UHGV virus genome: UHGV-0178594
DNA length: 64,000 nucleotides
Source: a virus
Strand: one strand, 5' to 3'
The position numbers and the translations under genes are program-made. This document shows, in pieces, positions 37,252 to 51,982 of the stretch; position 1 is the stretch's first letter, and each line of letters opens with the position of its first letter. Below the pieces are notes generated by a model. It was not told where the DNA came from, did not search any database, and was given only the letters and a program-made list of their open reading frames with translations.

Positions 37252-38178
37252 TTAACTAACAATCCAGTCGGTCGCTGCTACATCTTCTGGCTGTAAATCA
37301 ATCGCACAGATCTTGCCGTCGCGAAAGGTGCGCCAGTTTTTCCGTGAGCCTCTTTCGGGCCATACCCAGACACTTTCAGGCCAGGATGCTCGACGGCATA
37401 CGGTTGCATACCCTGTTTTAATCTTCTCTCTGGCGGTATGCAACGACAGGTTTGCCTTTGGACTTTCAGGCACAGGATGGTGAATGGCCTGAAATAGCCC
37501 CATCCTGGGATGATACCAGCGTTTGTTGCGTGGTTCAGCCTCCGACATAACCTGCTTAAAGGCTTTCCGGAAGGGGGCCAGGGCCACAATGGAGCGTCTC
37601 GCAAGCAAACCATCGGGAGTTAAAAACTCATGCGTATCTGTGGGGATCCGGTAAGCGTTGACCAGGTTGCGGCATTTGGCTTCAGTCAGGCCGCATTTCG
37701 CCGCTAACTGGCGATAGCCAATGTAGCCTTCCGGAATATTGCCTTTCTTTATTTGCTCGACGGTTTCAGCGACTTTGGTCACTTGTGCCGATACTTCGGC
37801 TACCTGGGCATTAACGGCGTTGATCCGGCGTTCATGCTCAAGATGCATTTGCGCCATTTCGGCCAGAATTTCGGCTTTTGATTTTAACGGTCCTCTGGCA
37901 TTCTCCAGTTCGCGCCAGCGGTCCACCAGCCGGGCGGTGAATTCGGGAGAGAGCTGCGCGACGACGATAATGCTATCGCGCTTGCCTTGTTCGCCTTCGA
38001 AGACGTAATAGCTCGCCGGGCGGCCTGCAGTGGGCTTTTCCTCAATTTGAGGAAAAGTTATTACGCCCCGTTCCGCCAGGTGTTCAATGGTGCGTTTAAC
38101 GTTGTCAGGACGCTTACCCACCAGCTCCGCGATCTCAATACTGGTCATTGTCGCTTTTTGAGAGATGGACAGATTCAT
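37252..38178 (-). CDS. Rha-family regulatory protein / antirepressor candidate
   Basis: N-terminal ..MTSIEIAELVGKRPDNVKRTIEHL.. resembles the Rha/antirepressor N-terminal domain; coiled-coil middle. Confidence 0.5.
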   Translation of the reverse strand: MNLSISQKATMTSIEIAELVGKRPDNVKRTIEHLAERGVITFPQIEEKPTAGRPASYYVFEGEQGKRDSIIVVAQLSPEFTARLVDRWRELENARGPLKSKAEILAEMAQMHLEHERRINAVNAQVAEVSAQVTKVAETVEQIKKGNIPEGYIGYRQLAAKCGLTEAKCRNLVNAYRIPTDTHEFLTPDGLLARRSIVALAPFRKAFKQVMSEAEPRNKRWYHPRMGLFQAIHHPVPESPKANLSLHTAREKIKTGYATVCRRASWPESVWVWPERGSRKNWRTFRDGKICAIDLQPEDVAATDWIVS

Positions 38179-38399: not shown

Positions 38400-38640
38400 A
38401 GCCTCCTTTGACTAAGTTAAGGAGCTACCGCGTGAGGTTCCAATCTCAATGGCGGTAGCACTGACTGGGTTGGAACTACCGGCGTCAAAGGGAACCGGCC
38501 TGCCTTTCGGCAGCCCAGCCAGCACTACCATTGATCTCTGAGCTAAACGCTAAGTATGGCTGTGCGATGGCATGACACAAAAAAAGACGCGTTCGGCGTC
38601 TGTGTCGCCTTTGACATTATCCGGGGTTCCAATCCCGGCA
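38400..38640 (-). ncRNA. Structured leader / candidate c4-like antisense regulatory RNA region
   Basis: Hairpins GCTACCGC..GCGGTAGC and CTGCCtttcGGCAG; GGTTCCAATC occurs twice (38427, 38619) with its complement TTGGAAC at 38466. Confidence 0.25.
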
Positions 38641-38706
38641 CCCGTTTTTCTAAGGTGCCGTAGAAATATACCCCACGATAATGCCAGGGCGCAACTGTGT
38701 GTTTTC

Positions 38707-38874: not shown

Positions 38875-39195
38875 TTTGACACCCCCAGCGCGAGTAAAGA
38901 ATGCAGATTATCGCGTGAGTGGCGGACAACGAGTGATGGGAAAAGACAGTAGCTGTTCATAGTGTAGTGACTCCTTGCTTTCGGAGCCGCCATCGACTGT
39001 TCCACGGTCTGGTGGCGGCGCAATAAAGGTTGGAACACCGTGAGTCAACGGGGGCTTTTCAGCCACCTATATTGCACCGCCATTGGTATGGCGGCGGCAA
39101 TCATACGAAAAACCAAACGGTTTGTCTCAAAAAGTTGACCGGTGTACCAATCGGTTGTGAATGTACAACGGCGAATCTCACAATTCAACTTAAAA

Positions 39196-39218
39196 TGTTA
39201 GAAAATTAATTTATCAAT
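39196..39218. promoter_or_regulatory. Operator-like element TGTTAGAAAATTAATTTATCAAT overlapping the ref stop codon
   Basis: Nearly identical to the element overlapping the dre stop codon at 58095. Confidence 0.4.
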
Positions 39219-39823
39219 TCAGTCACCATCTGATACAACGTCATTTCATCAGCATTGTGCCGCCTGAAATCTGCTTTGCCGCCTATTTTTCCATCAGCAT
39301 GAACAGGAACCAACCAGGGGTATTGCTCGCGGATCTCTGCTGGCGCTGCGTGTTGATGGTGCCATTTACACAAAGGGAGGACGTATTTATGCGCGTTCTC
39401 TGCTGTTCTCCCGAAGATGTGGTGCAGGGATACCACAGGGCTATGCTGTCCGTGCATATGGCAGGCAATGCAGGGGAGAGCACCGATGGCAGTTTGTATC
39501 CGGCGCTCATCTGCTGTGAGTGTTCTGCCTTTCAGGCCGCGTGACGCGCGAGTTTTTTTGACAGGAGCAGAAGCGGCCTTCTCTTTTCTTCGCTGTTCAT
39601 ATTGCTTCGCTTTTTCAATTTTCTTTTGCCGATATTCAGGCGATGCGGCTTTTTCTCGCGCACGCTGCTGCTGGCGTTGAGCTTGCTGAAGACGCTTTGC
39701 CCTTTGTTCCTCCCGCCATTTCGGATCAGCCAGTTTTTGCAGGGCTTTTTGTGTCTGTTTCTCCCAATAGCTTTGCTTCATAGAAATACCCGGTTTGTCT
39801 ACATCGCCGCTATGGTTGATCAA
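39206..39823 (-). CDS. ref: Ref-like HNH endonuclease (recombination enhancement function)
   Basis: K/R/Q-rich disordered N-terminal ~80 aa followed by HNH-type core ..CIACHMHG..HHIFGR..CKWHH..; matches the described architecture of P1 Ref. Confidence 0.6.
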   Translation of the reverse strand: MINHSGDVDKPGISMKQSYWEKQTQKALQKLADPKWREEQRAKRLQQAQRQQQRAREKAASPEYRQKKIEKAKQYEQRRKEKAASAPVKKTRASRGLKGRTLTADERRIQTAIGALPCIACHMHGQHSPVVSLHHIFGRTAENAHKYVLPLCKWHHQHAAPAEIREQYPWLVPVHADGKIGGKADFRRHNADEMTLYQMVTELIN

Positions 39824-39825
39824 AT

Positions 39826-39857
39826 GTGTTAGAAAATCAAAATTGATTTTCTAACAC
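39826..39857. promoter_or_regulatory. Near-perfect 32-bp palindrome GTGTTAGAAAATCAAAATTGATTTTCTAACAC directly upstream of ref
   Basis: 15-bp arms are exact reverse complements; 3 bp from the ref start. Confidence 0.55.
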
Positions 39858-39898
39858 AAAATGAAGATACTTTTTTTCAGACGCTATATCAGGAGGTC

Positions 39899-40054
39899 AT
39901 GATGCTTGTCGCAATAAGTGCAATCCACCAGCAATCCGGTACAGAAATTGGGTTGCTATATGCCCTGTTTTTCACTGTCCTGGCGTTGTTTGAGCTGGGC
40001 ATTGAACTCTTTGCTCTCATCAACTTTTGCGTAACGTTCCTGGGGAAACTTTGA
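39899..40054 (+). CDS. Small hydrophobic peptide (51 aa), translationally coupled to the next gene
   Basis: AGGAGG RBS at 39891, ATGATG start, TGATG stop/start overlap at 40052-40056; hand-translated MMLVAISAIHQQSGTEIGLLYALFFTVLALFELGIELFALINFCVTFLGKL. Confidence 0.3.
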   Translation: MMLVAISAIHQQSGTEIGLLYALFFTVLALFELGIELFALINFCVTFLGKL

Positions 40055-40665
40055 TGTCAAAACGCATTATGAAAATTTACATCGCGGGTCCGATGACTGG
40101 TTATCCCGACTACAACCGCACAGCGTTTTTTTCGAAAGCAAAAGAGCTGATGGAGGTAGGGCATATTGTTCTGAATCCGGCGCTGTTACCTGCTGGCCTC
40201 TGCGAGAGCGAATACATGGATATTTGCCTTGCAATGGTGCGTTCGGCTAATGCGGTCTATTTGCTCAAGGGGTGGGAGGAATCAGTTGGCGCTCGTGCAG
40301 AGCACGAGCTGGCTCAAAAGCTGGGGCTGAATGTAATTTATGAGTCACCAACCAACATTGAATGCCAGGTTGCTCCGCATATTTACCGGGAACTGGTCAA
40401 TGCACTGCGTGATATCGCTGCTGTATATCACGGCACAGAACAGCTTCGTGAGCGTTTAGCCCATACCATTTCCTATTACCTGTCTGCATCTCATGAGCAC
40501 AAGCTCCGTCAGAAGGTAATGATCAAATTTATCATGAGGTTATCGAAATCCCTGGCAAACGCCGATCCAAAGAATCCATTACCGAAAGTGGCAATGAATT
40601 ACCTGAAGTCCTGCAACATTGTTTCTGAAGATGGCGTTCTTTTGGTTAGAAGGAGTTCTGCGTGA
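40054..40665 (+). CDS. DUF4406-like (nucleoside 2-deoxyribosyltransferase-like fold) protein
   Basis: N-terminal ..KIYIAGPMTGYPDYNRTAFF..GHIVLNPA.. motif; C-terminal half unassigned. Confidence 0.45.
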   Translation: MSKRIMKIYIAGPMTGYPDYNRTAFFSKAKELMEVGHIVLNPALLPAGLCESEYMDICLAMVRSANAVYLLKGWEESVGARAEHELAQKLGLNVIYESPTNIECQVAPHIYRELVNALRDIAAVYHGTEQLRERLAHTISYYLSASHEHKLRQKVMIKFIMRLSKSLANADPKNPLPKVAMNYLKSCNIVSEDGVLLVRRSSA

Positions 40666-41012
40666 GCTGGCGGGGATGGGGAAGGGCAGAAATCATGATA
40701 CTCCGCCAGTGCGCCGGGACTATGACAGTCGAGGGTATTGGGAGACTGATCGGGCGTACCGGTGGTGCTGTCAGGACTAAAGCGCGGCAATTGCGGATCA
40801 GCATGATTCTGAAAGGTGACTTTCACCAGTCAGCCAAATACCGGCAGAGCGATATAGAGCTGGCGCGGCAGCTTCATCAGTGTGGCGTTCCCCGCCGTGA
40901 GATCGCAGAAAAACTCGAAATGCCCCTGGGCATGATTAATCAGTACGTTTATTTCGAAAGGAGAGTGCATGAAGTCAGAAGGTTTAACGCCCGCACAACT
41001 GGCAGAGCGTAA
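40662..41012 (+). CDS. Hypothetical protein with HTH-like segments
   Basis: 116-aa ORF. Confidence 0.3.
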   Translation: MSWRGWGRAEIMILRQCAGTMTVEGIGRLIGRTGGAVRTKARQLRISMILKGDFHQSAKYRQSDIELARQLHQCGVPRREIAEKLEMPLGMINQYVYFERRVHEVRRFNARTTGRA

Positions 41013-41478
41013 CGCTGAGTATGTAACGGAAATTTCCCGACTTGAGAAAGAGCGCGCGGCGCTGGCGGCAGAGAATGCGACACTGAAGGCGATATGTGAG
41101 GACCGCCGCACGTTCATCATGAATGGCGTGCTGCTTGGTTTTATCCAGATGCCAACAGCGGAAATAGATCCAGCTCTTGAAACAATTCGTGTCGCCCTAT
41201 CACCACAAAATCCTACCCCTGCGACCGACGCTTTCTTGGATGAAATGAAGACTGAAGCACGCAAGGAAGGGGCTTACTTTGTGGCGAACAGAATGTTGGC
41301 TGCCTGGAAAGCTGGTTTTATTGATGATACTGCGAAGAACGCCGCGGATATTGCCCGGATGATTCTTACCTCTACTGATTTTATGGCTAATGCGCCGGAA
41401 GGAGATTTTGACCGCTCATTCTCTGATGGCGTTCTCGAAGATATCGCTGAACAGCTTCGTAAAGGAGTCATCCAGTGA
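40969..41478 (+). CDS. Modular coiled-coil protein, family member 1 (Ea22-like?)
   Basis: Coiled coil ..LEKERAALAAENATLKA..; C-terminus ..[10 protein letters not shown] shared with paralogs. Confidence 0.4.
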   Translation: MKSEGLTPAQLAERNAEYVTEISRLEKERAALAAENATLKAICEDRRTFIMNGVLLGFIQMPTAEIDPALETIRVALSPQNPTPATDAFLDEMKTEARKEGAYFVANRMLAAWKAGFIDDTAKNAADIARMILTSTDFMANAPEGDFDRSFSDGVLEDIAEQLRKGVIQ

Positions 41479-42197
41479 GCGAAATTAATTACCAGGCACT
41501 GCGTGAGGCGGCGGAACGTGCAATTCCAGCAATGGAACGCCTGTTAATGTTGCCAGCTGATGATGATTTGTTAAGTGAACAGGAACTTAAAGATTACGGT
41601 GTGGATATTGATGCGCTCAACGCCTTCAAATTTCTGGCCGGACCAGAAACCGTGCTGGCACTACTGGATGAACGGGAAAGAAACCAGCAATACATCAAAT
41701 CTCGCGACCAGGAGAACGAGGATATTGCGCTAACGGTAGGGAAGCTGTTAATCGAAAACGGTCAGCTTGTTGCCGATACGCTACGCCACTTAGCTGATAA
41801 CGAAATCGACTCTGATTATTTTGCTATCACCTCAACTAATGAGAACGGTACTGAAATTGATCATGAGATGTCTATTACCGATTACGCACTGCAAGCTGCC
41901 GGAACTGTAGACGAATTGGTTGCGGCGCTGGAAGCCGCAAAATCAAAACTCAACGAGCAGCGTGAATATTACGAGGGAGTAATCGCGGATGGAAGTAAGC
42001 GCATAGCAGAGTTAGAAAGTGGTTCTCAGGCACAAAAGTTAGTTGAAGCAATCATTGTTGCGATAGAAAACGAACAGGAACGTCTTTTTGATGAAGATTA
42101 CCTAATGGATTCGAAAGAATGCATTGACGTAATTCGTGAAGAAGTAAAGCGATGGAATGATTCCCGCGCCGCTGGCATTCGCATCAAAGGAGAGTGA
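41475..42197 (+). CDS. Modular coiled-coil protein, family member 2
   Basis: GTG start inside the GTGA junction; N-terminus [13 protein letters not shown] shared with 47610. Confidence 0.4.
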
Positions 42198-42198
42198 G

Positions 42199-42522
42199 AT
42201 GACCACATCGCATTCTGCAATCACCCAGGAAAAAGTATTTCGCTTGCTCGAACGTCTGGAGGCGCTCGCCACGGAGGAGGATATATCCCCGGAGATGCTG
42301 GTCGAGTGCAGCCGTGTGATATTGCGTCGCAAGAACGACATCGCGCGGCTGACATCTGGCGCACAATCCGTATCAGCCAGTCCAACGCTTTATTGCAGCT
42401 TCTGCAACAAATCCCAGCACACCGTTAAAAAGTTAATTGCCGGGGACAACGTTTTCATCTGCAACGAGTGCGTGAAAGATTGCAACAACATTATCCAGGA
42501 AGAGCAAAGGGAATCAGCATGA
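42199..42522 (+). CDS. Small protein with C-terminal ClpX-type C4 zinc-binding domain
   Basis: ..[39 protein letters not shown].. closely matches the remembered N-terminal zinc-binding domain of E. coli ClpX; no AAA+ module follows. Confidence 0.55.
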
Positions 42523-43229
42523 AATTTTCCAAATTCTCGGAGTTGGTGAATCGTATTTTGTCCAACAACCACAGCCATCGTCGCGATATGGATGTAACGA
42601 TCGTTGTTCATTCGCCTGGTCGCATCGGTTCAACACCATCAGTTGAGGTTCAGTCAATTCAGGTGGGTTTTGATTGGGATGCCGGGAAAGTGCTGATTTT
42701 CCCAGCACAGCCACTGACCACGCTAACACCAGAACAGATTACTGATATTACGGATAGTGTGCGCAAAGGTCAGTCTTGGCACGCATATCAGGAATACAAG
42801 AAGCATAAAGAGCAGTTGGAAAAATTGTCGATTGAACTGGATGCTGCAAGACGGCGCATTACAGAACTGGAGAGCGAACGCGCGGTGCTGGCGGCGGAGA
42901 ATGCGGAGCTGAAGTCTGTGCACCCTCAACCATTCGGAGCTGAGATGATGAAGGCTCTTGATGCGTATGAGAAGCATCAGGATGAAGTGCCAGAGACTGG
43001 AATGCTCAATGCATTTTTCATCTTGCGCGACAGTATCCGTGTTGACACCCCAGCCACCGATGCTTTCCTGGCTGAAGTACGTGCGCAGGGCGTGGATATG
43101 GCTCGTAACGCGATGATTGATTTTGTCGATGGTGAAGTTGGGCCAAACAAGAACGTTCCGGGGCTGATTAGAGGCGCAGAGATATGCGTAAGTATTGCTG
43201 AACAGCTTCGCAAAGGAGGCAGCCAGTGA
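42519..43229 (+). CDS. Modular coiled-coil protein, family member 3
   Basis: ..[18 protein letters not shown]..; C-terminus ..[10 protein letters not shown]; ATGA overlap with the previous gene. Confidence 0.4.
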
Positions 43230-43501
43230 ATATCGACACGACAATAACGATCGATACGCTCCTAAATACCGGTCTGGCACTTCTCGGTTGGCTTTACATC
43301 ATGTCCCGTACATGGCGATGGCTGGGTTCCATTTTCCTAAAACAGTGGAAAAAACGGCGCAAACAGGAACTACGTCAGAAGGCATTAGAAGCGTTCTATG
43401 ACGCATTTGAGCTTAGCCGCATTGAACCAGGTACAACAGCCAGGATAGCGACAAAAGGCGACCTGATGATAGTGATGTTCAGACAGGAGAAAACAAAATG
43501 A
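43226..43501 (+). CDS. Small membrane protein
   Basis: 91 aa with one TM segment (LALLGWLYIM); GTGA junction start. Confidence 0.3.
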   Translation: MNIDTTITIDTLLNTGLALLGWLYIMSRTWRWLGSIFLKQWKKRRKQELRQKALEAFYDAFELSRIEPGTTARIATKGDLMIVMFRQEKTK

Positions 43502-43722
43502 CAGAACAGACGATGACAAATCGCGAACTTGTTGATGCCGCGATTGAACTTGCTGGCGATTTTTATTCCATGTTGGGTTACGAGCATCGACCTGGTTTTA
43601 AGTATTGGGAGTCACCGCATCCGCAAGAACAACAGGTGTTTGAAATGGCCTGCCGTGCTTTTGAGGTTATTCGCGGTTCTGATGTGATGGAGGCCGTTGC
43701 CGACTTGGAGGATGAAGAGTGA
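43498..43722 (+). CDS. Hypothetical protein
   Basis: 74-aa ORF, 4-bp overlaps on both sides. Confidence 0.3.
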   Translation: MTEQTMTNRELVDAAIELAGDFYSMLGYEHRPGFKYWESPHPQEQQVFEMACRAFEVIRGSDVMEAVADLEDEE

Positions 43723-44030
43723 GCATCATTAAAGAAATGCCGGTAGAACGTGATGAATATGGCTGCTGGACACATCCGGAGTATGAAAAGTTTTGCGCAG
43801 GTCGTGAATATATATCCACTGAGGAATTTGACGCCTGGATGAAGGAAAATAATCTTCAGTGGACTATTCGCAGTATGGATGAAGATCATTTTAATCTGGA
43901 CGCAGATGGTCCCGATATTGCCGCCTGGGAACCAGAGCGACCAGAGGGCGAAGGATGGTTTGTTGGCTCTATTCATGACACTGAAGATGGCCCGGTTTGT
44001 ATCTGGCTGCGGGAGAAGGTTGCCGCATGA
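43719..44030 (+). CDS. Hypothetical protein
   Basis: 103-aa ORF. Confidence 0.3.
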
Positions 44031-44713
44031 CCCAGGCGCTGCATGAAGTGAATTTATATAGCCGTATTGATGGTTCAGGCTACAGAAACATATGGGTTGT
44101 TGGTGATCTGCATGGTTGCTACACCAGATTGATGTCTGAACTTCATCGTGTGGACTTTGACCCGACACAGGATTTACTGATATCGGTTGGCGACCTTATC
44201 GATCGCGGCACCGAAAATGTTGAATGCCTGGAGCTATTGCAGATGCCCTGGTTTCGGTCGGTTATGGGAAACCACGAGCGATTAATGATCGATGCGTTAA
44301 GCCCCGCAGGCAACGTGAATAACTGGCTAATGAATGGCGGCCAATGGTTCTTCATGCTGGACGCTGATCGGGAAATATTAGCCAGGGCGCTGGTGGAGCT
44401 GGTAAAGCGTCTGCCCTATATCATTGAGTTGAACACCGGGCATGAAACTATCGTTATAGCCCATGCCGACTATCCTGATAACGAATACCAGTTTGGTAAA
44501 CCTGTTAGCGATCTCAATGTTACCTGGCGGCGTGAGCGATTTTATGACGCGGTTGATGGTGTTGGTGGAATGATCACTGGTGCAGATAGCTTTATTTTCG
44601 GGCATACGCCAGTAAACAGCCCGAAATCTTTCTGGAACCAGCACTACATAGACACTGGCGCGGTTTTTTGCGGAAATCTGACGCTAAAGCAGGTGAAGGG
44701 AGGCCAGCCGTAA
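44027..44713 (+). CDS. Ser/Thr protein phosphatase (calcineurin-like metallophosphatase, lambda PPase-like)
   Basis: Motifs ..VVGDLHGC.., ..GDLIDRG.., ..GNHE..; start at ATG 44027 inside the listed 43997 ORF. Confidence 0.75.
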
Positions 44714-44744
44714 TCCTGAACACATCGTTTATGCACTCAAAACC

Positions 44745-44775
44745 GTGTTAGAATATTGATTTTAATTTTCTAACA
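44745..44775. promoter_or_regulatory. Operator-like palindrome GTGTTAGAATATTGATTTTAATTTTCTAACA upstream of the 44818 gene
   Basis: Member of the recurring motif family. Confidence 0.45.
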
Positions 44776-44817
44776 TATTATTTTACCGCTCGGAACAAAA
44801 CAGAGTCGGTATACATT

Positions 44818-45813
44818 ATGAGTGCAATAATCACACCTCATTTCGTAAACGGAGCTGGTGTGGCTGTCTTTCCGGTAGACAAGCCCACCAGCAACTACAT
44901 TGGCGCAGGTCGCCGTTTCATTATCTCTCCACTTCCGCGCGAACAGGCTGAAAACACGCCAGATGGCGTAGTGGATCTGAACTATTCGCTGGTTGCCAAC
45001 CAGTCTCTGAAAGCATTTTTTCAAAGCGAGCGCGTATTTAACGCATTAGGCGGTGAAGATTCGCTTGTTCATTGGGTAAGTTCCAATATCCACGATTGCC
45101 AGGCGCACGATAAGCGCGATTGCAGCCACCAGCTAACCACTCATTTCTATAACGGCTCTGCCGTTCGCCTGTGCTGGAAGCATGATGCGGAATACATGAT
45201 GAAGGGGTACGGCAAGCTGGATGACCAGTTATCCCTAAATCGTGCCAACTGGGTTATGAACTGGGCTGCGAGCGAGTTAAAACTACCGCCAGAACGCGAT
45301 CTGAGCATGGTTGAACTCACTTTTTGGGCCATTCGCCGGAATCTGAAAGACGAGCTGCCAGATGAAGCCGGTCGCATTGCATTTTGTCAGCCAAAACAGG
45401 AAATCCCTACCGGCACACTGAAAGAATCGGATATCACCTGGGAGCACAGCACCCGTGAGCTGGTGGACATAACCGCAGAGCAGATCGTCAACCTGTCTGT
45501 AGATGAGGATTCCGGCCTGCTGTATATGCGCCGACCAAAAGCGGTTCTCGGTAAAAGCCCGGCTTATCTCCGGTTTGTGATTTCTCGTCCGTGCATCGGA
45601 TGCGGAGGCAAAGTTAATCACCCGTTCATGTACCGCGCCCGCTCGTTAAACGAACACGATCGCTGGGCCGTTCCTCTTTGCGATGAATGCGCCAGAAGCG
45701 CAGAAAACGATGTCCGGGCATGGGAAAAAGCACATGGCATACGCCTTTACGTAGCCGCCAACCAGCTTTTCGACTTCGCCATCGAGCGCGGAGTGATCAC
45801 GTTCAATAACTGA
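44818..45813 (+). CDS. Hypothetical protein with C-terminal Cys cluster
   Basis: 331 aa; ..RPCIGCGGKVNH..VPLCDEC.. Confidence 0.35.
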   Translation: MSAIITPHFVNGAGVAVFPVDKPTSNYIGAGRRFIISPLPREQAENTPDGVVDLNYSLVANQSLKAFFQSERVFNALGGEDSLVHWVSSNIHDCQAHDKRDCSHQLTTHFYNGSAVRLCWKHDAEYMMKGYGKLDDQLSLNRANWVMNWAASELKLPPERDLSMVELTFWAIRRNLKDELPDEAGRIAFCQPKQEIPTGTLKESDITWEHSTRELVDITAEQIVNLSVDEDSGLLYMRRPKAVLGKSPAYLRFVISRPCIGCGGKVNHPFMYRARSLNEHDRWAVPLCDECARSAENDVRAWEKAHGIRLYVAANQLFDFAIERGVITFNN

Positions 45814-45817
45814 TGGA

Positions 45818-46396
45818 GTGGATCAAAAAATGAAAGAACGCGGGATGATTTTTAACGATGAGATGGTCCGGGCAATTCTTGGCGGGAATAAAACACAGAC
45901 TCGCAGGATTGTTGAAGAAAAATTCTATGGACGAGCAGTTGCCGCAGAGTTGCTTGCCAAGCATTGTCCATATGGTCAACCGGGCGATCGTATTTGGGTT
46001 CGCGAAACCTACCGGGTACATGGCAAAGCGACGGACGTCGCAACGCTGGTTTATCGCGCAAGCGTGCGTAACTCCTGGACAGAACAAACGCACCGGGTTC
46101 CGGTCGATGTTTGTAATAAACCAGTATCAGAAAAGTGGACGCCATCAATTCACATGCCGCGCTGGGCATCGCGCATTCTTCTGGAAATTACCGACGTGCG
46201 TGTGGAACGGCTGCATGACATGAGCGAGGCAGATGCTAAAGCAGAAGGCGCAACTCCGGCGACGTACAAGATTACGCCACCTGAAGCTGTTTATCGCGTT
46301 GGTTTTGGTGATATCTGGCGCAGTATTTACGGGCAGGATAACTGGCTATCTAACCCGTGGGTATGGGTAATCGAGTTTAAGCGCATTCAGGAATAA
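45818..46396 (+). CDS. ASCH-like prophage protein
   Basis: N-terminal ..MIFNDEMVRAILGGNKTQTRR.. signature common in enterobacterial prophage proteins. Confidence 0.4.
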   Translation: MDQKMKERGMIFNDEMVRAILGGNKTQTRRIVEEKFYGRAVAAELLAKHCPYGQPGDRIWVRETYRVHGKATDVATLVYRASVRNSWTEQTHRVPVDVCNKPVSEKWTPSIHMPRWASRILLEITDVRVERLHDMSEADAKAEGATPATYKITPPEAVYRVGFGDIWRSIYGQDNWLSNPWVWVIEFKRIQE

Positions 46397-46479
46397 ACCG
46401 TGAGTATGCATCAAATCGTCAGTTTTTCAGGTGGACGAGCATCGGCCTGTCTCGTTCATCTGTTCGAAGAGGTAGTGGA

Positions 46480-46683
46480 ATGACAATCGTAAAAACCCAT
46501 ACCGGTACCGTGATCACCAAAGATGGCCCGCAGGTAAAAAAACTGCACCAAACAGAGCGGATGTGGGTCGTTGGCAAAAACGAGTTTTACCACAAAGAAA
46601 CTGGACGCCGCCATTTTGCAGAAAATACGCGCCGCCGACTGCTGTTAGACACCATCAAGCCTATCGAGGTGAAGCATGTTTAA
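46480..46683 (+). CDS. Hypothetical small protein
   Basis: 67-aa ORF. Confidence 0.3.
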   Translation: MTIVKTHTGTVITKDGPQVKKLHQTERMWVVGKNEFYHKETGRRHFAENTRRRLLLDTIKPIEVKHV

Positions 46684-46915
46684 ACAGAACGAAAAAGCTA
46701 TCGCTCAAATTGCTGATTATATCCCGCGTGCGTGCCGAGGTATGCAGTTGCAGGAAGCCAAAGCGCGCCTGGAGAAAAAAATTGCGCTCTATATTGATGA
46801 CGGCTGTGATGCCGCCGTTCTTAACGCGGCGTTCGCACCAGCTCTTAACCGTCATACTCGGGAGTCTTTTTTTTCGTGCATCGCAGCGCAACTCCGCAAA
46901 GGAGGCAACCAGTGA
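46676..46915 (+). CDS. Small protein sharing the family C-terminus ..AAQLRKGGNQ
   Basis: 79 aa; ends in the GTGA junction. Confidence 0.35.
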   Translation: MFKQNEKAIAQIADYIPRACRGMQLQEAKARLEKKIALYIDDGCDAAVLNAAFAPALNRHTRESFFSCIAAQLRKGGNQ

Positions 46916-47178
46916 GTGAGTCAAAATGCCAAATTAATGGCAACAAGATAGAACCGTGCGCGGCGTTGACGCAATCCCTGGAACATGACGCTGAATACAC
47001 GACGCGAAAAGGTCTGCTGAAATACAAAATCTATAACCATGCATTAATTCATTCACAAGACCTGATCATGCTGCGGTCAGGCGAGTTTTCTAAATCGCCG
47101 ATTCGAATTTCATTTTGCCCGTTCTGTGGTGAAAGTCTGAAAACGTGGGAAGCGGAGGCAACCAGTGATCAAAATTAA
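46912..47178 (+). CDS. Small protein with CPFCG zinc-ribbon-like motif
   Basis: GTG start in the GTGA junction. Confidence 0.3.
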   Translation: MSESKCQINGNKIEPCAALTQSLEHDAEYTTRKGLLKYKIYNHALIHSQDLIMLRSGEFSKSPIRISFCPFCGESLKTWEAEATSDQN

Positions 47179-47623
47179 CTATCAAGAACTGCGCGAGGCG
47201 GCGGAACAGGCAACGCAAGATGAATGGGTAGCATATATTTTGCCGGGTCATAACGGCATTTATCCTGCGCGCACGTCTGAGGGTAGGCATTGCGGATACT
47301 TTATTGACTGGCCTGGTATTGATGGGCTGAGAAACGCTGGTGCCAATGCCCGTTATATCGCGGCTATCCCACCAAAAGTTGCTCTGGCGCTACTGGGCGA
47401 AATTAAGCGCCTGGAAGACGCAAATATTGATGCCATGTGCCGAATTGCAGAACTGGAGAGCAATCGCGCGACGCTGGCGGCGGAGCAGCGTATTCAGATT
47501 GCAATAAATGAACTGGTTGCTCTGGCCCCGCGCCTGGATAAACGAGCGATGGATGCACTCTCTGTGACTGTGGTGCACCTGTATAAACTGATTAATAAGG
47601 AGGCAACCAGTGAGCGAAATTAA
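47165..47623 (+). CDS. Modular coiled-coil protein, family member 4
   Basis: N-terminus IKINYQELREAAEQ; ..ELESNRATLAAEQ.. Confidence 0.4.
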   Translation: MIKINYQELREAAEQATQDEWVAYILPGHNGIYPARTSEGRHCGYFIDWPGIDGLRNAGANARYIAAIPPKVALALLGEIKRLEDANIDAMCRIAELESNRATLAAEQRIQIAINELVALAPRLDKRAMDALSVTVVHLYKLINKEATSERN

Positions 47624-48308
47624 TTACCAGGCACTGCGTGAGGCGGCAGTGAAAGCAACGTGGGGAGACTGGGACTCATATAAACCACACCGTGGCGCAC
47701 GTGGTTATGAGGTCCGACTAAGTAGTCAGGCCATTGCGCAACACGTTCTGAAAAACAACGCTGAATTTATTGCTGCCTTTAATCCCAAGGTTGCTTTGGC
47801 ACTACTGGATGAGATCAACGCATTAGAGGAAACGCGTATCAACGATGTTTGCCGTATTGTGGAACTAACAAAACAACTGGAGTCGGCAAAATCAAAACTC
47901 AACGAGCAGCGCGAGCATTACGAGGGAGTAATCGCGGATGGAGGTAAGCGCATAGCAGAACTGGAAAAACAATGCGCTGAATCGGAGCGAAAAGCATTAA
48001 GCAACTTTGAAGAGTGTGCTGCGATGGCTGAACGTATCGAAGAGTTGGAGCAGGCCAACACAAGACAGGACGCCAATATAAACCACCAGCAGGAGGGCGT
48101 GACTCAATCAGTCACCCGATACATATATCACTACAACGCAGTGAATGGTTCTGACTCTATGTCTGGAATTGCGCGGTTAACTTTCATGATCAAATCACAA
48201 TCTGACCTTGACGCACTTAAAAGCGCACTTAGCAAGGTTGGTGGTTTCCGTGCAAAAGCAATTACATCTCTTTCATATCTTGGGTGTGAGGAAGATAGCA
48301 AACGATGA
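47610..48308 (+). CDS. Modular coiled-coil protein, family member 5
   Basis: N-terminus [12 protein letters not shown]; ..[27 protein letters not shown].. nearly identical to a segment in 41475-42197. Confidence 0.4.
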   Translation: MSEINYQALREAAVKATWGDWDSYKPHRGARGYEVRLSSQAIAQHVLKNNAEFIAAFNPKVALALLDEINALEETRINDVCRIVELTKQLESAKSKLNEQREHYEGVIADGGKRIAELEKQCAESERKALSNFEECAAMAERIEELEQANTRQDANINHQQEGVTQSVTRYIYHYNAVNGSDSMSGIARLTFMIKSQSDLDALKSALSKVGGFRAKAITSLSYLGCEEDSKR

Positions 48309-48838
48309 AAGAAGGATTTAAAGATAATTCAGGTGCAGCGCAAAACACTGGAGAAATCATTGAGGCATTTAATGGGGAGGAAATGCCCACTTTATTCAGA
48401 AAAGAATATCCGCGAAAGAGTAGAGCACTAGAATTGCTGTTTATCATTCTGTTTTTCGTGTTGCTGATACCAATAGCCTCAATATTAGTGACTGTTCTAA
48501 TGGGGAAAGTATTTGAACCGTTAGTTGAACTGTATATCGATATAGTGTGGACCCCATTCAGGAAGCTACACAATAAAATTAACCCACATAAGGAAACAGA
48601 TATGGCAACTTTGAAAAAAGAAGATCGTTTTACCAAAAAACAAATCGCCGAGGCAAAAATCCTCGATAACAACGGAACCTACTTCATCAACGGTTCCATT
48701 CTTCCTGTTTATATCAATGAAGATGGAGACACTTACCTTATTGAAGAGTACGAAAAAGGCGAGCCGAGCGAACACCTCATTAAAGATTTGTTCGCGGATG
48801 GCGTTATTGTTGCTGTTAATCCGATTGGCTACAACTAA
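48305..48838 (+). CDS. AT-rich membrane protein
   Basis: 177 aa; TM stretch ALELLFIILFFVLLIPIASILVTVLMG. Confidence 0.3.
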   Translation: MKEGFKDNSGAAQNTGEIIEAFNGEEMPTLFRKEYPRKSRALELLFIILFFVLLIPIASILVTVLMGKVFEPLVELYIDIVWTPFRKLHNKINPHKETDMATLKKEDRFTKKQIAEAKILDNNGTYFINGSILPVYINEDGDTYLIEEYEKGEPSEHLIKDLFADGVIVAVNPIGYN

Positions 48839-48848
48839 AGCATAAATT

Positions 48849-49361
48849 ATGACCAGTATTACCAGAGAACAGGCCAAGAAAATTATTGAAGCTGCCGATG
48901 AGGTTATTAGTGCGCTTGCCGGAACTAACGAGGATGTTCACCCTGGTAGCGATAACATGCTACGTCTGTGGGATGACCTGAATGACCGTTACGCGCCGCC
49001 GGAAGTTGTGCGTGAGCTGGCGCGTATCGTGCTGGCATCGCTGGAAGCGGAGCCTGTAGCGTGGCGATATCGCTACGTGAAAAAAGGCGTTACGGACTCT
49101 CAGGGGGAGCCGTGGGTTGGTGACTGGAAATATGTACCGACAAAAGAGGATTGCAACGACAGGCCGAGCTATGAGATTCAGGCCTTATTCACTGCCCCGC
49201 CAGTCCCGGTGACATCAGAAGGACTGGTTAAAGCCGTGCGTTTCTATGAACAAGTTAAGCGTGAAAATCCGCCAGTCGAAACCGGAGCATGGAAAGACGC
49301 GATTGACTGGGTGCTCAAAGAGGCCTGCCAGGTTGTAAACACTGGCATCAAAGGAGACTGA
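48849..49361 (+). CDS. Hypothetical protein (shares ASLEAEPVA / APPVPVT segments with 49569)
   Basis: 170-aa ORF. Confidence 0.35.
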   Translation: MTSITREQAKKIIEAADEVISALAGTNEDVHPGSDNMLRLWDDLNDRYAPPEVVRELARIVLASLEAEPVAWRYRYVKKGVTDSQGEPWVGDWKYVPTKEDCNDRPSYEIQALFTAPPVPVTSEGLVKAVRFYEQVKRENPPVETGAWKDAIDWVLKEACQVVNTGIKGD

Positions 49362-49362
49362 T

Positions 49363-49572
49363 ATGGCTATTGCCGCAAGTTACACCATGCATCTCTATTG
49401 TGATTGCCTCCAGTGTACAGATGGCAAATATAAGTCGCCAGACTTCGGTGAGTATATCGGTACGTCATGGGCTGGCTGTGCAAAAGAGGCGCGCAAAGAT
49501 GGCTGGCGAATAAGCAAAGACAAAACGCGTGCTTTTGCGCCCGGGCATAAAGTTTTGAGGATTAACAAATGA
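49363..49572 (+). CDS. Small Cys-rich protein
   Basis: 69 aa; ..YCDCLQCTDGKYKSPDFG.. Confidence 0.3.
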   Translation: MAIAASYTMHLYCDCLQCTDGKYKSPDFGEYIGTSWAGCAKEARKDGWRISKDKTRAFAPGHKVLRINK

Positions 49573-50633
49573 CCACTTTAACCGACAAAGAACTGATTAA
49601 AGAAATCAAAGAGCGAATCGGCAGCCTGGACGTGCGAGACAATATTGAGCGCCGTGCTTATGAAATTGCTCTGGCATCGCTGGAGGCAGAGCCAGTGGCA
49701 AAAATTATAGCTCACTACCCATTAGGAATTGACGTAGGCAAACAAAAGTTCGTACAGGCCATTGGAGAGCTTCCTGACTTTGGAGGATATCTATTCGCCG
49801 CTCCACCTGTGCCGGTAACACAGGCTAATGTCGCGCAAGCAATTGAAAATCTTAAGCAGAAGTTAGTGGAATGCAATCGCTATAACTACTGCGCAGATGC
49901 AGTTAAAGATGTTGAGGATGCCAGCCGCGTCTTGGCACTCCAAAATCAAAATATGTCAGCACCGATAACGCAGGAGGCCATTGAAAACGCAATTGAATAT
50001 ATCCGCAGTATTGCTTTTCACATCGATGAAGACGATTACCACGGCAAGCATATTGCGTATTTCATGCGACAAGCACTGGTCTGGCTGGAAGGGCATTCAT
50101 GCAGCGACGACAGACAGGATAAAGCCGAGAATCAACCAGTACGCGGTAACCAGGCTGCCGAATCCAATCGCGGTAATGAGTGGACCGGCAATCCTGATAT
50201 TGATAACGCCATCATCATGCTTGACCGCATAGATACGGCGGAAAGTTACGATGATGACCGTATTGAGGCTGTTAAGGCTGTTTTGCGTAGACTGGCAGGC
50301 AACTCTCCGGTAATTCCGGATGGTTTATCCACGGTATGCGCTGAGGCTTATCAGGTTGTAGGAGTTATGGCAGATGCGCTTGGTGTATTCGGTGATGCAG
50401 CAGTACAGAAAGTTCTGGATAACCTGTCACAGCAAAAACTTGTTCACAGAGATGTGCTGCCGTTCTCGCTTCCGGTAACTCCGGATGGTTGGGTTATGGT
50501 TCCTAAACAGGTAACGCCGGAAATCAGCAACGCGATAAACGTTGTGGGTCAACGCTGTACATGCGGAAATTGCTCTCAGCGGTTGTGGGATTTATTACTC
50601 GACGCCACACAGCAAGGAGTTAACCGTGGCTAA
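49569..50633 (+). CDS. Hypothetical protein
   Basis: 354-aa ORF. Confidence 0.35.
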   Translation: MTTLTDKELIKEIKERIGSLDVRDNIERRAYEIALASLEAEPVAKIIAHYPLGIDVGKQKFVQAIGELPDFGGYLFAAPPVPVTQANVAQAIENLKQKLVECNRYNYCADAVKDVEDASRVLALQNQNMSAPITQEAIENAIEYIRSIAFHIDEDDYHGKHIAYFMRQALVWLEGHSCSDDRQDKAENQPVRGNQAAESNRGNEWTGNPDIDNAIIMLDRIDTAESYDDDRIEAVKAVLRRLAGNSPVIPDGLSTVCAEAYQVVGVMADALGVFGDAAVQKVLDNLSQQKLVHRDVLPFSLPVTPDGWVMVPKQVTPEISNAINVVGQRCTCGNCSQRLWDLLLDATQQGVNRG

Positions 50634-50809
50634 CCTGCAACTTATCCTCAAAGGTGAAAAGATTTGAGGATTCGCATCATTAATAACACCGACAAGCATC
50701 CGGATGATTATTTGGATTGCTCGTTAGCAGAGCGCGTGGAATTGATATAAGAGAATCTCCGCGCATCGGCAACACACAGCTAAATATGTTCGCAATAAAG
50801 GGTAAATCA

Positions 50810-51211
50810 ATGGCTAAATTTCGGAGAACTATTATTTTTCTGGCAATGTTATCTGCCTGCCATTTATCACATGCATCGGTTATTGTTGCAACCGCCGCAA
50901 CAACGGCAGCAATTAGCGCCTCAGCCGCAAGCGAGCAGGAGCAACGCACTGCAATCAATGCATCCGCAAATACTACCACTGTAGCAGTCACGCAAGATAA
51001 GCCAAATATAGGCTTTGTTACTTGCGGAAAACGGTATGGAGAGACGGTCGGTTCTCTTGGTTGCGCAGTGTGGCATGACGAACGAGCAGAAATTCCGTGG
51101 AAATCATGGCCTGGTTACATTCTTGGCGAAAAGATACCCACCAGCTATGAAGTAAATGCTATTTCGTTCGACCAATATAACAGAGTCGCAACGGTCTACT
51201 TTTCTTATTAA
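50810..51211 (+). CDS. Lipoprotein candidate
   Basis: From ATG 50810: MAKFRRTIIFLAMLSAC.. (lipobox-like LSAC). Confidence 0.35.
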   Translation: MAKFRRTIIFLAMLSACHLSHASVIVATAATTAAISASAASEQEQRTAINASANTTTVAVTQDKPNIGFVTCGKRYGETVGSLGCAVWHDERAEIPWKSWPGYILGEKIPTSYEVNAISFDQYNRVATVYFSY

Positions 51212-51217
51212 CACGGA

Positions 51218-51517
51218 GTGATTATGTGGCGCGGTAATAATCATGGCAGAAGCCATATGATACTTACCGAATATAAGCTAGACCACAAAACCAATAAATC
51301 ACGCTCAGTATATTTGCTCCGGCACAATAGCCGCGTAAGGAATACCGTGCTGGAGCAATATCTGACCGTTGAAATGGATAATTTCGGGAATTTCAAGCCA
51401 ACAATATCGCTTGATGATTTCCCTCGTGGTTTAAGCGAAAGAGAAGCAATGCTGAAATTAGCAGAATGGCTACAAAGATTGAGCATTGTTATTGAAGATA
51501 ACTGGAGTCAACCATAA
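51218..51517 (+). CDS. Hypothetical protein
   Basis: 99-aa ORF. Confidence 0.3.
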   Translation: MIMWRGNNHGRSHMILTEYKLDHKTNKSRSVYLLRHNSRVRNTVLEQYLTVEMDNFGNFKPTISLDDFPRGLSEREAMLKLAEWLQRLSIVIEDNWSQP

Positions 51518-51693
51518 TGAAAAACAGAAAGAAATTTTGGATTACTTTTTTGTTTGTATGCCTTTGCGGTTCATTTGTTTTGTTGGCTGGTGGTGTTGAA
51601 TGGGGAACGATGGGATGTGGAGTTGGGAGTGGCTTTACGCTTCTTGCAGCCTGGGTTATCGCTGGCGTTCAGTCTGGAGGAGGGTATTACTAA
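51517..51693 (+). CDS. Small membrane protein (58 aa)
   Basis: TAATG overlap with the previous gene; MKNRKKFWITFLFVCLCGSFVLLAGG.. hand-translated. Confidence 0.25.
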   Translation: MKNRKKFWITFLFVCLCGSFVLLAGGVEWGTMGCGVGSGFTLLAAWVIAGVQSGGGYY

Positions 51694-51713
51694 GTAATTT
51701 TATTACCCCCTTC

Positions 51714-51765
51714 ATAACGGATATCACTCTCGTGATAACGGATATTCCAATTTTGATAACGGATA
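51714..51765. promoter_or_regulatory. Three direct repeats ATAACGGATA spaced 21 bp upstream of the 51773 gene
   Basis: Copies at 51714, 51735, 51756. Confidence 0.45.
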
Positions 51766-51772
51766 AAGCCAA

Positions 51773-51982
51773 ATGAGGCATTTTTTAAGGCTGGCATTTG
51801 TTCTGGCGCTATTTGCTCCTCCGGCTGCGATGGCTGGAGAACAGCAGCACTGTGTAACTGAATCAGAGAATCTTGTAATAGTCACTCAATGCGATGACGG
51901 AACGGTGACCGTGGTTAATGTACGAGATAACCGTGTAGCCGTGTGTCGTAAAGGCGAATCATGCAAGGAGATAAAGCTATGA
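51773..51982 (+). CDS. Small secreted Cys-containing protein
   Basis: Signal-peptide-like MRHFLRLAFVLALFAPPAAMA. Confidence 0.3.
   Translation: MRHFLRLAFVLALFAPPAAMAGEQQHCVTESENLVIVTQCDDGTVTVVNVRDNRVAVCRKGESCKEIKL

Follow-up and report, generated by a model that had tools for sequence, protein, structure and literature searches.

In Ea22 proteins, a coiled coil joins a short N-terminus to a C-terminal domain that varies (PMC10834534). The ea22 genes of Shiga toxin (Stx) phages are mosaic, with several variants per genome (PMC10834534, PMC8614690), and several mosaic variants per genome have likewise been reported for the prophages of enterohaemorrhagic Escherichia coli (EHEC) (PMC10834534). 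The lambda and Stx proteins are tetrameric and favour lysogeny (PMC7093339, PMC10834534), and lambda can do without ea22 (PMC10695390). A K/R-G-E tail of unknown significance has been described at the end of all Ea22 proteins (Dydecka et al., PMC7093339). One study of lambdoid phages presents module exchange via short conserved flanking sequences as a known route, and describes Red-promoted recombination between diverged sequences (PMC2327257). We compared with these systems a 7.3-kb stretch of mosaic genes, at positions 40969-48308 of the virus genome UHGV-0178594; the window is the whole stretch of DNA analysed, 64,000 nucleotides (nt) long, and is a D6/P1-like E. coli phage-plasmid. Linker or boundary sequences are reportedly also the subject of Susskind and Botstein (1978) and, for HK620, of Clark et al. 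(2001; cited in PMC2327257), both in the context of the modular evolution of lambdoid phages. Our results make it likely that the stretch consists of variable modules held together by nucleotide-conserved junctions, which act as translation-start regions and as recombination patches at the same time.

The open reading frames (ORFs) that begin at 40969, 41475, 42519, 47165 and 47610 (A, B, C, D and E, respectively; Table 1) are present on the + strand, as the original prediction had it from the sequence alone. All five were thought to share an AEQLRKG(G/V)xQ tail and an N-terminal (S/I)EINYQ head. The shared blocks are indeed real and non-random, as judged from the motif count, the direct repeats, blastp and phrog_368, but no ORF has both termini: the tail belongs to A and C, and to an ORF missing from the original list, F, and the head, (S/I)(E/K)INYQ, belongs to B, D and E. 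We searched the window for the 17-nt motif AAGGAGGCAACCAGTGA with up to 3 mismatches. Five copies were found, all on the + strand, against 0.18 expected, and none of 100 shuffles gave five. Junction 1 is defined here as AAGGAGGCAACCAGTGA followed by the conserved codons of the start of the next gene. Each of the five copies has AAGGAG(G) 6-7 nt before its GTG, which is the first codon of the next ORF. Four GTGA junctions with an AGGAGG ribosome-binding site had been predicted; there are five motif junctions (41475, 43226, 46912, 47165 and 47610), only three of them true GTGA overlaps, and a Shine-Dalgarno (SD) sequence is present, if not always as AGGAGG (copy 1 in Table 1).

The two kinds of junction 1 differ in the frame of the upstream gene. 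From A to B, from C to n and from F to G, the upstream ORF reads ..KG(G/V)xQ and its TGA overlaps the GTG (GTGA at 41475, 43226 and 46912). From G to D and from D to E, the upstream ORF is one frame over (ending ..EATSDQN and ..EATSERN) and stops at a TAA 10 nt past the GTG, with a 14-nt overlap; this TAA sits inside the conserved ATT-AA(T/C) codons of the next gene. The stops of junction 1 serve both non-fusion frames, one by the TGA in GTGA and the other by the TAA in ATTAA 10 nt later. As the same motif is read in two frames, it is therefore conserved as DNA and not as the peptide RKGGxQ. Moreover, the spacer CAACCA, which is not part of the SD, is kept across unrelated contexts and frames. 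One could imagine that all these similarities are chance matches of low-complexity coiled coils and ordinary ribosome-binding sites, and the coiled-coil segments do give weak spurious matches to BAR, OmpH and JetC. Against this stand the motif count and the shuffles, blastp E-values down to 1e-26, Pfam scores 2.5-4 times the gathering threshold and the 89% identity of B and E over 91 nt. Shared termini by chance are ruled out by the shuffles, blastp and Pfam, and we give practically no credit to this already refuted explanation.

Outside the window, we scanned IMG/VR with exact patterns, which returned at least 120 stretches for junction 1 and as many for a second junction described below; the families of flanking proteins were obtained by protein-level clustering with the ends trimmed. 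Junction 1 gave at least 185 usable occurrences, with at least 8 upstream and at least 14 downstream families in at least 26 combinations, and at least 17 complete 2x2 quartets. The upstream proteins end ..AAQLRKGGNQ, NKYLNAMWRKGGNQ or FSCIAAQIRKGGNQ, or, when the junction is read in frame +1, for example ..ESPAKEATSEQD; the latter reading concerns 45 of the 185 copies among the matches listed. Downstream, 128 of the 185 lead into Ea22-like genes, again among the matches listed, and the other partners are proteins beginning VSNRFYMMCLRE.., VTVCLIDKRRRG.. or VTGHAAILDMCCG.., the VSIVQRCRAE.. protein, DUF4752 and G-like genes. Both junctions are linkers in the sense that, in different genomes, a conserved boundary sequence has unrelated sequence on both sides. 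Of 5426 complete E. coli genomes, 457 contain the 76-nt combination of junction 1 and the N-terminal cassette, with 391 occurrences on chromosomes and 136 on plasmids, and the exchange pool includes both chromosomal prophages and phage-plasmids. In lambda, the orf73 stop overlaps the GTG of ea22, and lambda's own junction 1 has diverged (GAGAGGTTCGAAGTGA).

These counts bear on the idea that the shared termini are functional motifs of the proteins, namely an N-terminal oligomerisation or interaction helix and the C-terminal ..RKGGxQ and ..KGE, the overlap of SD and start being secondary. The Pfam Ead_Ea22 model begins with the N-terminal block, which exists in two similar allelic forms, SEINYQ and SKIDYQ, that differ at synonymous and non-synonymous sites, and the K/R-G-E tail was noted in all Ea22 proteins (PMC7093339). 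However, at 47152 and 47597 the upstream ORF uses another frame of the junction-1 DNA, as in the frame +1 copies elsewhere; it ends unrelated proteins (F and the NKYLNAMWRKGGNQ protein) and precedes at least 14 unrelated families; the SD, the spacer and the stop/start overlap account for every conserved base of the tail; and the 64-residue lambda domain solved by nuclear magnetic resonance (NMR) suggests that the tail lies outside the fold (PMC10834534). F itself is not an Ea22 paralog, and its blastp match to C is confined to F residues 69-79. A protein-level origin of the termini is thus unlikely in our opinion. What was described as conserved 'C-terminal codons' is better understood as a signal in the DNA, for translation and for the junction, than as a protein motif, and the conserved C-terminal peptides (..RKGGxQ, ..IKGE) are largely by-products of DNA signals.

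A second junction type, absent from the original prediction, ends the upstream protein with ..IKGE or ..IKGD (42170-42200 and 49340-49365). The consensus of junction 2 is GCTGGCATTCGCATCAAAGGAGAGTGA(G/T)ATG, the DNA of the ..IKGE or ..IKGD end being ATCAAAGGAGA(G/C)TGA(G/T)ATG. The ..AGIRIKGE end of B is encoded by GCTGGCATTCGCATCAAAGGAGAGTGAGATG, and its ATG is the start of the ClpX zinc-finger gene Z (TGA-G-ATG at 42199), which lies 1 nt past the TGA of B and is the downstream partner of junction 2. The 31-nt run at 42170-42200 is identical to the lambda ea22 3' end, and the C-terminal domains that precede it are at chance-level identity. In viral contigs, junction 2 occurs at least 145 times with many different partners: a count by eye gave at least 12 unrelated Ea22 C-terminal domains before it, and at least 20 families come after it. 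The simplest explanation for the K/R-G-E tail would be at the DNA level, AAA-GGA-GAG serving, in a conserved junction cassette, as the SD for the following cistron; the later Ea22 literature that we examined makes no mention of it. If so, the open question of why Ea22 proteins end in K/R-G-E gets a concrete and testable answer. K/R-G-E is also a weak family criterion, because its codons would be the SD of the next gene; in the window the tail is carried by B only (..IRIKGE), D ending ..SERN and E ..DSKR. In lambda ea22 (L127 1048-1100, - strand), the SD and TGA of junction 2 are kept and the ATG has become ATC (GATCGG), no start codon following; 190 nt of non-coding DNA lie between this junction and ea8.5. 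The lambda sequence suggests that its junction 2 may be vestigial and that the downstream cistron was lost in lambda.

We then asked whether exchange has left traces at these sequences. Positions 39000-51800 of the window were compared with 41 D6-like loci, that is, L001-L006 and 35 IMG/VR loci anchored on the DUF968 gene. As many as 58% of the 411 homology endpoints fell within 20 nt of intra-window repeats, which occupy 12.7% of the region, and 24 of the 42 hotspots overlapped repeats (circular-shift controls: mean 5.7, maximum 16; p<=2e-4). Operon junctions with motif 1 or 2 had breakpoints in a mean of 17.9 of the 41 loci, against 5.4 for the other junctions (Mann-Whitney p=0.002), and the second junction-2-like copy had one in 15/41. 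Three exact recombinants were also found, for each of which gain or loss is equally compatible. L002 is 99.8% identical to the window up to 41482, and the window's A-to-B junction consists of the left half of L002 junction 1 (GGAGTCATCCAGTGAGCGA) and the right half of L002 junction 2 (CCAGTGAGCGAAATTAATTACC..), the crossover of this hybrid lying within CCAGTGAGCGA, inside 11 shared bases; the window therefore lacks an entire Ea22-like gene that L002 has. In the D/E slot, L002 has a single Ea22 gene, in which residues 1-78 of D continue in frame into the remainder of E, the crossover lying in the PKVALALL block. Moreover, the 51 nt at 47597-47647 recur with 100% identity in a different slot of L002 (4129-4179). 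The alleles of C have an invariant N-domain and coiled coil, followed by four types of block X and at least five types of block Y, and end LRKGGNQ; a conserved linker divides blocks X and Y, which assort freely, and one allele (P0003) carries the C-terminal block of A. The original prediction that the cassettes are substrates for homologous shuffling, to be checked by comparing related phage-plasmids, is supported by the endpoints, hotspots, junction breakpoints and exact recombinants of these loci.

The signs of exchange are not limited to the gene ends. Four families of direct repeats (D1-D4) correspond to the N-terminal block (84 nt, 64-75% identity), the ELESxRAxLAAE coiled-coil block (58 nt, 62-79%), the C-terminal tail block (37 nt, 62-89%) and the KSKLNEQRE block (91 nt, 89%). 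The internal linkers between variable modules include the ELExxRAxLAAENAxLK coiled coil and the (V)ALALLDE.. block, and a breakpoint at 41747 recurs in 6/6 plasmid/phage loci. The TPATDAFL linker, missed by the repeat finder, has two further hotspots, at 41215-41221 (5 loci) and 43044-43067 (6 loci).

Such a pattern might also arise if the cassettes were relics of old tandem duplications, the junctions were kept as SD and start, and illegitimate recombination occurred anywhere, followed by selection (the Hendrix model). Indeed, many breakpoints lie at ordinary gene boundaries without a motif (42504-42514, 45814-45817, 45904-45909 and 49572-49593), and, according to Martinsohn et al., about half of the lambdoid mosaic patches have no flanking 'shoulder' (PMC2327257). 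This model is difficult to reconcile with the conservation of CAACCA, a spacer and not an SD, across unrelated contexts and frames, with the 51 nt that are 100% identical between different slots, with an A-to-B junction made up exactly of parts of two junction copies found in a 99.8%-identical relative, with in-frame chimeras whose crossovers lie inside internal linkers, and with the significant excess of breakpoints at motif-bearing junctions. We hold it to be improbable.

A sharply conserved 15-17-mer at many unrelated gene boundaries, in an operon adjoined by a Ref-family nuclease gene (39206-39823), could alternatively be the target of dedicated cassette-moving machinery, whether a site-specific recombinase, a homing endonuclease or a small RNA or protein regulator, in the manner of integron attC sites. 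However, the crossover points are spread over the cassettes (41442-41515, 46900-46933 and 47154-47213) and not placed at one position. The motif has no inverted-repeat or attC-like structure, no tandem repeats were found, and folding of the RNA of seven junction segments gave no significant structure (z from +0.3 to -1.3). A small SD-sequestering hairpin, CU(U/C)CG(C/U)AAAGGAG, was considered and rejected: it is confined to AEQLRKG-type junctions and is therefore no general feature. The window contains no complementary copy of the motif that could act as an antisense partner, and no Rfam family is present in 40000-52000, the only matches, C4 and isrK, lying upstream of the stretch. No recombinase domain was detected in the ten proteins scanned (the ORFs of the stretch, the ClpX zinc-finger gene and two ORFs downstream), the other operon genes being outside the scan; NCBIfam gave nothing past the ClpX zinc finger, and PADLOC, as a search for defence models on the neighbouring proteins, gave only weak coiled-coil matches to JetC. 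The likeness to integrons is a functional analogy only, in that one recurrent boundary sequence serves for the insertion of many unrelated ORFs into an expression array; the locus differs from them by the lack of an integrase among the scanned proteins, of an attC-type imperfect inverted repeat and of a folded single strand, by exchange points spread over a homology patch and by a boundary that is itself coding sequence and ribosome-binding site. Dedicated machinery is, in our view, very improbable.

Altogether, we favour junctions with a double role in translation and recombination. Junctions 1 and 2 would constitute the translation-initiation region of the next cistron, a function that we infer from their sequence. 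Translation should be coupled by the strong SD, placed 6-7 nt ahead of a start codon that adjoins or overlaps the stop of the upstream gene. The junctions and the internal linkers would also be patches of identity for homologous or short-homology recombination, as the comparative patterns suggest, and recombination at these patches could add, delete, swap or fuse cassettes in register, with shuffling between slots and between phage-plasmids and lambdoid prophages. Candidate enzymes are the host RecA or the Red/RecET systems of lambdoid prophages in the same cell. RecA may be aided by the Ref nuclease of the plasmid; in P1, Ref stimulates recombination at short repeats. Several points weigh on the other side. 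Translational coupling and the use of the GTG starts are read from the sequence, and recombination at the cassettes from endpoint patterns; sequence conserved for translation would edge homology blocks even after illegitimate recombination and selection; and the 41 loci are related to one another, so that the endpoints behind the breakpoint statistics are not independent. For the N-terminal cassette, with which PF13935 starts, conservation is partly that of a protein motif, and the tails could still have a function in the protein. Finally, the AlphaFold model of C is of low confidence, and the exo-xis context of lambda is absent here.

One may go further and speculate, with considerable doubt, that lambdoid prophages and P1/D6-type phage-plasmids of enterobacteria have junctions 1 and 2 in common as portable 'adaptor' cassettes, which, like the internal linkers, would be kept partly for the combinatorial evolvability of the accessory-gene array. 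Each junction carries a ribosome-binding site and a start, and junction 1 also the stops for both non-fusion frames. If this is true, an ORF recombined beside a junction would be correctly terminated and the next gene expressed, and K/R-G-E and KGGxQ would be signals for translation and recombination rather than functional peptides.

Table 1. Positions in the window of the junctions, cassettes and genes of the mosaic stretch and its operon.
Feature	Position	Strand	Sequence, matches and remarks
Junction 1 copy 1, A to B	41462-41478	+	AAGGAGTCATCCAGTGA; AAGGAGT, not AGGAGG
Junction 1 copy 2, C to DUF4752 gene (n)	43213-43229	+	AAGGAGGCAGCCAGTGA; breakpoint within 40 nt in 28/41 loci
Junction 1 copy 3, F to G	46899-46915	+	AAGGAGGCAACCAGTGA; breakpoint nearby in 22/41 loci
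Junction 1 copy 4, G to D	47152-47168	+	GCGGAGGCAACCAGTGA; upstream ORF in frame +1
Junction 1 copy 5, D to E	47597-47613	+	AAGGAGGCAACCAGTGA; upstream ORF in frame +1
Junction 2	42170-42200	+	GCTGGCATTCGCATCAAAGGAGAGTGAGAT(G); ..AGIRIKGE and stop; SD AAGGAG for the next ATG (Z)
Junction 2-like second copy	49340-49365	+	..GGCATCAAAGGAGACTGATATG; ..GIKGD and stop; TGATATG; between ORFs 48849-49361 and 49363-49572
Coiled-coil cassette, A	41016-41088	+	LEKERAALAAENATLK; paralogous copies: 42842-42914 (C), 47428-47488 (D); loci with a breakpoint, of 41: 24 (A), 22 (C), 12 (D)
TPATDAFL linker, A	41215-41238	+	copy at 43047-43070 in C; divides variable blocks X and Y
(V)ALALLDE-type block, B	41643-41747	+	related blocks (P)KVALALL(D/G)E in D (47378-47401) and E (47784-47813)
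KSKLNEQRE-type cassette, B	41928-42018	+	copy at 47877-47967 in E (89% nt identity); also in lambda Ea22
Accessory-gene operon	about 40054-50633	+	co-directional, tightly packed
ORF A, 169 amino acids (aa)	40969-41478	+	coiled coil (..RAALAAENATLK..), TPATDAFL linker, variable C-terminal block, AEQLRKG-type tail; phrog_14548/614/368; no Pfam match; homologous to C, E=5e-7
ORF B, 240 aa	41475-42197	+	canonical Ea22-like; tail AGIRIKGE and stop; PF13935 119 bits
ORF Z, ClpX-type C4 zinc-finger gene, 107 aa	42199-42522	+	PF06689 64 bits; likewise annotated in L001 and L002
ORF C, 236 aa	42519-43229	+	invariant N-domain (1-110), coiled coil, variable block X, linker, variable block Y, tail
ORF n, DUF4752 gene, 91 aa	43226-43501	+	phrog_667; GTG overlaps the TGA of C; unrelated downstream partner of junction 1
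ORF F, 79 aa	46676-46915	+	phrog_1344; last 11 aa (..AAQLRKGGNQ and stop) are junction 1
ORF G, 88 aa	46912-47178	+	phrog_4030; GTG overlaps the TGA of F; 3' end ..EAEATSDQN and stop
ORF D, 152 aa	47165-47623	+	short Ea22-like: VIKINYQELREAAEQ, PKVALALLGE, ELESNRATLAAEQ; PF13935 66.8 bits; end ..KEATSERN and stop
ORF E, 232 aa	47610-48308	+	Ea22-like with its own C-terminal domain; PF13935 76.3 bits; phrog_250/29890

The predicted resemblance to Ea22 proteins was borne out, although not evenly across the five genes. B, D and E score well above the gathering cut-off of Pfam Ead_Ea22 (PF13935; 27 bits), which A, C and F do not reach, having no Pfam family match. B aligns with lambda Ea22 over its full length (35% identity, E=1e-26 in blastp), sharing block by block the GTG-SEIN(Y/S)QALREAAE head, two internal blocks and the AGIRIKGE end; E also aligns with lambda Ea22 in its sequence blocks. 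Among the five proteins, blastp relates A to C (Table 1), B to E (83% over 35 aa) and D to E (44% over 97 aa). The 239 positions of phrog_368 are matched in parts, by A at 110-239, B at 1-104, C at 16-239, D at 1-126 and E at 1-157, and A-E each also match many partial PHROGs families, the mark of a family with shuffled domains. C has 3160 homologs; those among the matches listed all come from Escherichia, Shigella or Salmonella. Relatives of C at 62-66% identity carry PF13935, and A and C are therefore regarded as related mosaics rather than clear members; they are paralogs that reuse the Ea22-type coiled coil with another C-terminal domain.

Structure adds little to these assignments. B, D and E have C-terminal domains with no relation to the one solved for lambda Ea22, and searches of PDB sequences with E and C gave nothing meaningful (best E-values 0.26 and 0.087). 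The NMR domain of lambda Ea22 has 64 structured residues, and an AlphaFold helix extension past it was judged implausible (PMC10834534). For C, AlphaFold with a 21-sequence alignment gave a mean predicted local distance difference test (pLDDT) of 58 and a predicted template-modelling score (pTM) of 0.25, the long helix at 87-134 being the only confident part. By homology with lambda and Stx Ea22, the proteins are probably oligomeric coiled coils that present variable C-terminal domains to host partners and bias the outcome of the lysis-lysogeny decision.

The nucleotide matches of the 7.3-kb stretch are to P1/D6-type phage-plasmids of E. coli and Salmonella. The top relative, NZ_LR890273 (locus L001), is 99.2% identical over 90% of it, NZ_CP104667 99.3% over 83%, and phage D6 91% with 47% coverage; parts of the region also match about 450 phage records, mostly of Stx and other lambdoid phages. 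Plasmid records with a match number roughly 970. Annotated relatives have a backbone of ref, DUF4406, a DNA-binding protein, ead/Ea22-like genes, the ClpX zinc-finger gene, DUF4752, a NinI-like phosphatase and DUF968/pdcB. The operon includes three genuine Ea22-family genes (B, D and E) and the two paralogs A and C, and its kinds of genes are those of the exo-xis ('ea') region of lambdoid phages. The exo-xis setting of the lambdoid pL operon itself was not found, the neighbours being ref, DUF4406, the ClpX zinc-finger gene, the NinI-like phosphatase and DUF968/pdcB. Stop and start overlap at 13 of its 20 gene junctions. G was also called by PGAP in L001 (9939-10205). An alternative-frame ORF of 118 aa overlaps F (46563-46919, +) and ends ..KEATSE; it reaches 149-156 aa in many phages, where it is open because the junction is open in frame +1, and it is probably no gene but a trap for gene callers.

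Matches to sigma-70-like promoters are depleted in 39000-52000 (4, against 17.5 +/- 3.7 in shuffles), with no + strand site in the operon or elsewhere in this interval, which fits one or two long transcription units. Two related palindromes, at 39826-39856 and 44745-44775 (GTGTTAGAAAATCA-AAAT-TGATTTTCTAACAC and GTGTTAGAATATTGATTTTAATTTTCTAACA), are the sole two copies in the 64 kb, where none is expected. They occupy the intergenic gaps directly upstream of each half of the operon, before 40054 and before the DUF968 gene at 44860, and are candidate operator or activator sites for a dedicated regulator. We rejected them as late-promoter boxes of the P1 Lpa type, as two elements with no further copy in 64 kb are no general late-promoter element. 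Divergent from the mosaic operon and adjoining it is the gene for the Ref-family recombination-enhancement nuclease (39206-39823, -), which could promote the short-homology exchanges inferred here. Further upstream, Rfam matches to C4 antisense RNA (38448-38535, -; 77 bits) and isrK (38580-38658, -; 61 bits) adjoin icd-like and Rha/Ant-like genes (37252-38178); this is the P1-type immI immunity region, just before the mosaic genes.

Other differences and repeats were noted around the same genes. A phosphoadenosine-phosphosulfate reductase family gene of NZ_LR890273 (L001 8638-9510) is absent from the window at 46397-46479, the homology resuming via a 7-nt overlap at 46463-46469; a gene of this family (VSIVQRCRAE..) is placed after junction 1 in other phages. 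Downstream, ORFs 48849-49361 and 49569-50633 form a second mosaic family. They have in common an N-terminal cassette, ..LASLEAEPVA.. (repeats at 49032-49060 and 49671-49699), and match phrog_660/60/5117 piecewise, and the first of them ends junction-2-like with ..GIKGD. Breakpoint hotspots are found at 49054, 49350-49365 and 49572-49593. ORF 49569-50633 also contains a 20-nt direct repeat, TCCGGTAA(T/C)TCCGGATGGTT, at 50306-50325 and 50471-50490, coding for PVIPDG/PVTPDG, the first copy of which is a homology breakpoint (50325) in 15/41 related loci.

As the Ea22 family, its mosaicism and exchange at linkers have already been published, the locus is a known kind of feature in a new host element. 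No new kind of system is revealed, and the details of the junctions are of modest interest; what appears undescribed in the literature searched is the base-level definition of two promiscuous junctions, their use in two frames and the explanation of K/R-G-E. The locus provides a worked example, to the base, of how accessory genes probably move between chromosomal lambdoid prophages and phage-plasmids, elements which also carry resistance genes. For annotation, gene calls in this region become more reliable where GTG starts overlap stops, where genes overlap by 14 nt and where spurious ORFs lie in alternative frames.

Compared with lambda Ea22 and the Stx-phage variants V1-V3 (PF13935), the likeness lies in the blocks that B shares with the lambda protein, in the apparent succession of N-terminus, coiled coil and variable C-terminal domain, in the several variants per genome and in a GTG that overlaps the upstream stop. 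The differences are a host element that is a P1/D6-type plasmid prophage with no exo, xis or int nearby, the absence of the K/R-G-E tail from D and E, a TPATDAFL-type C-terminal domain in A and C, which are below the Pfam threshold, and, on the lambda side, a diverged junction 1 and a junction 2 without a following start codon. The ATGA or GTGA overlap of stop and start with an SD inside the upstream gene is common in phage operons, and the present genes resemble such coupled cistrons by their overlapping or abutting ends, the 13/20 overlapping junctions and AAGGAGG 6 nt before GTG; however, one 17-mer found five times in one operon, and in more than 120 viral contigs with different partners, exceeds such a generic constraint. 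Finally, as in the linkers of lambdoid phages, short conserved boundary sequences are flanked by unrelated DNA, breakpoints coincide with them and the pool is within one host group. Unlike those linkers, the ones described here are defined to the base, double as SD, start and stop, are used in two reading frames and occur also inside coding sequence, where they yield in-frame chimeras.

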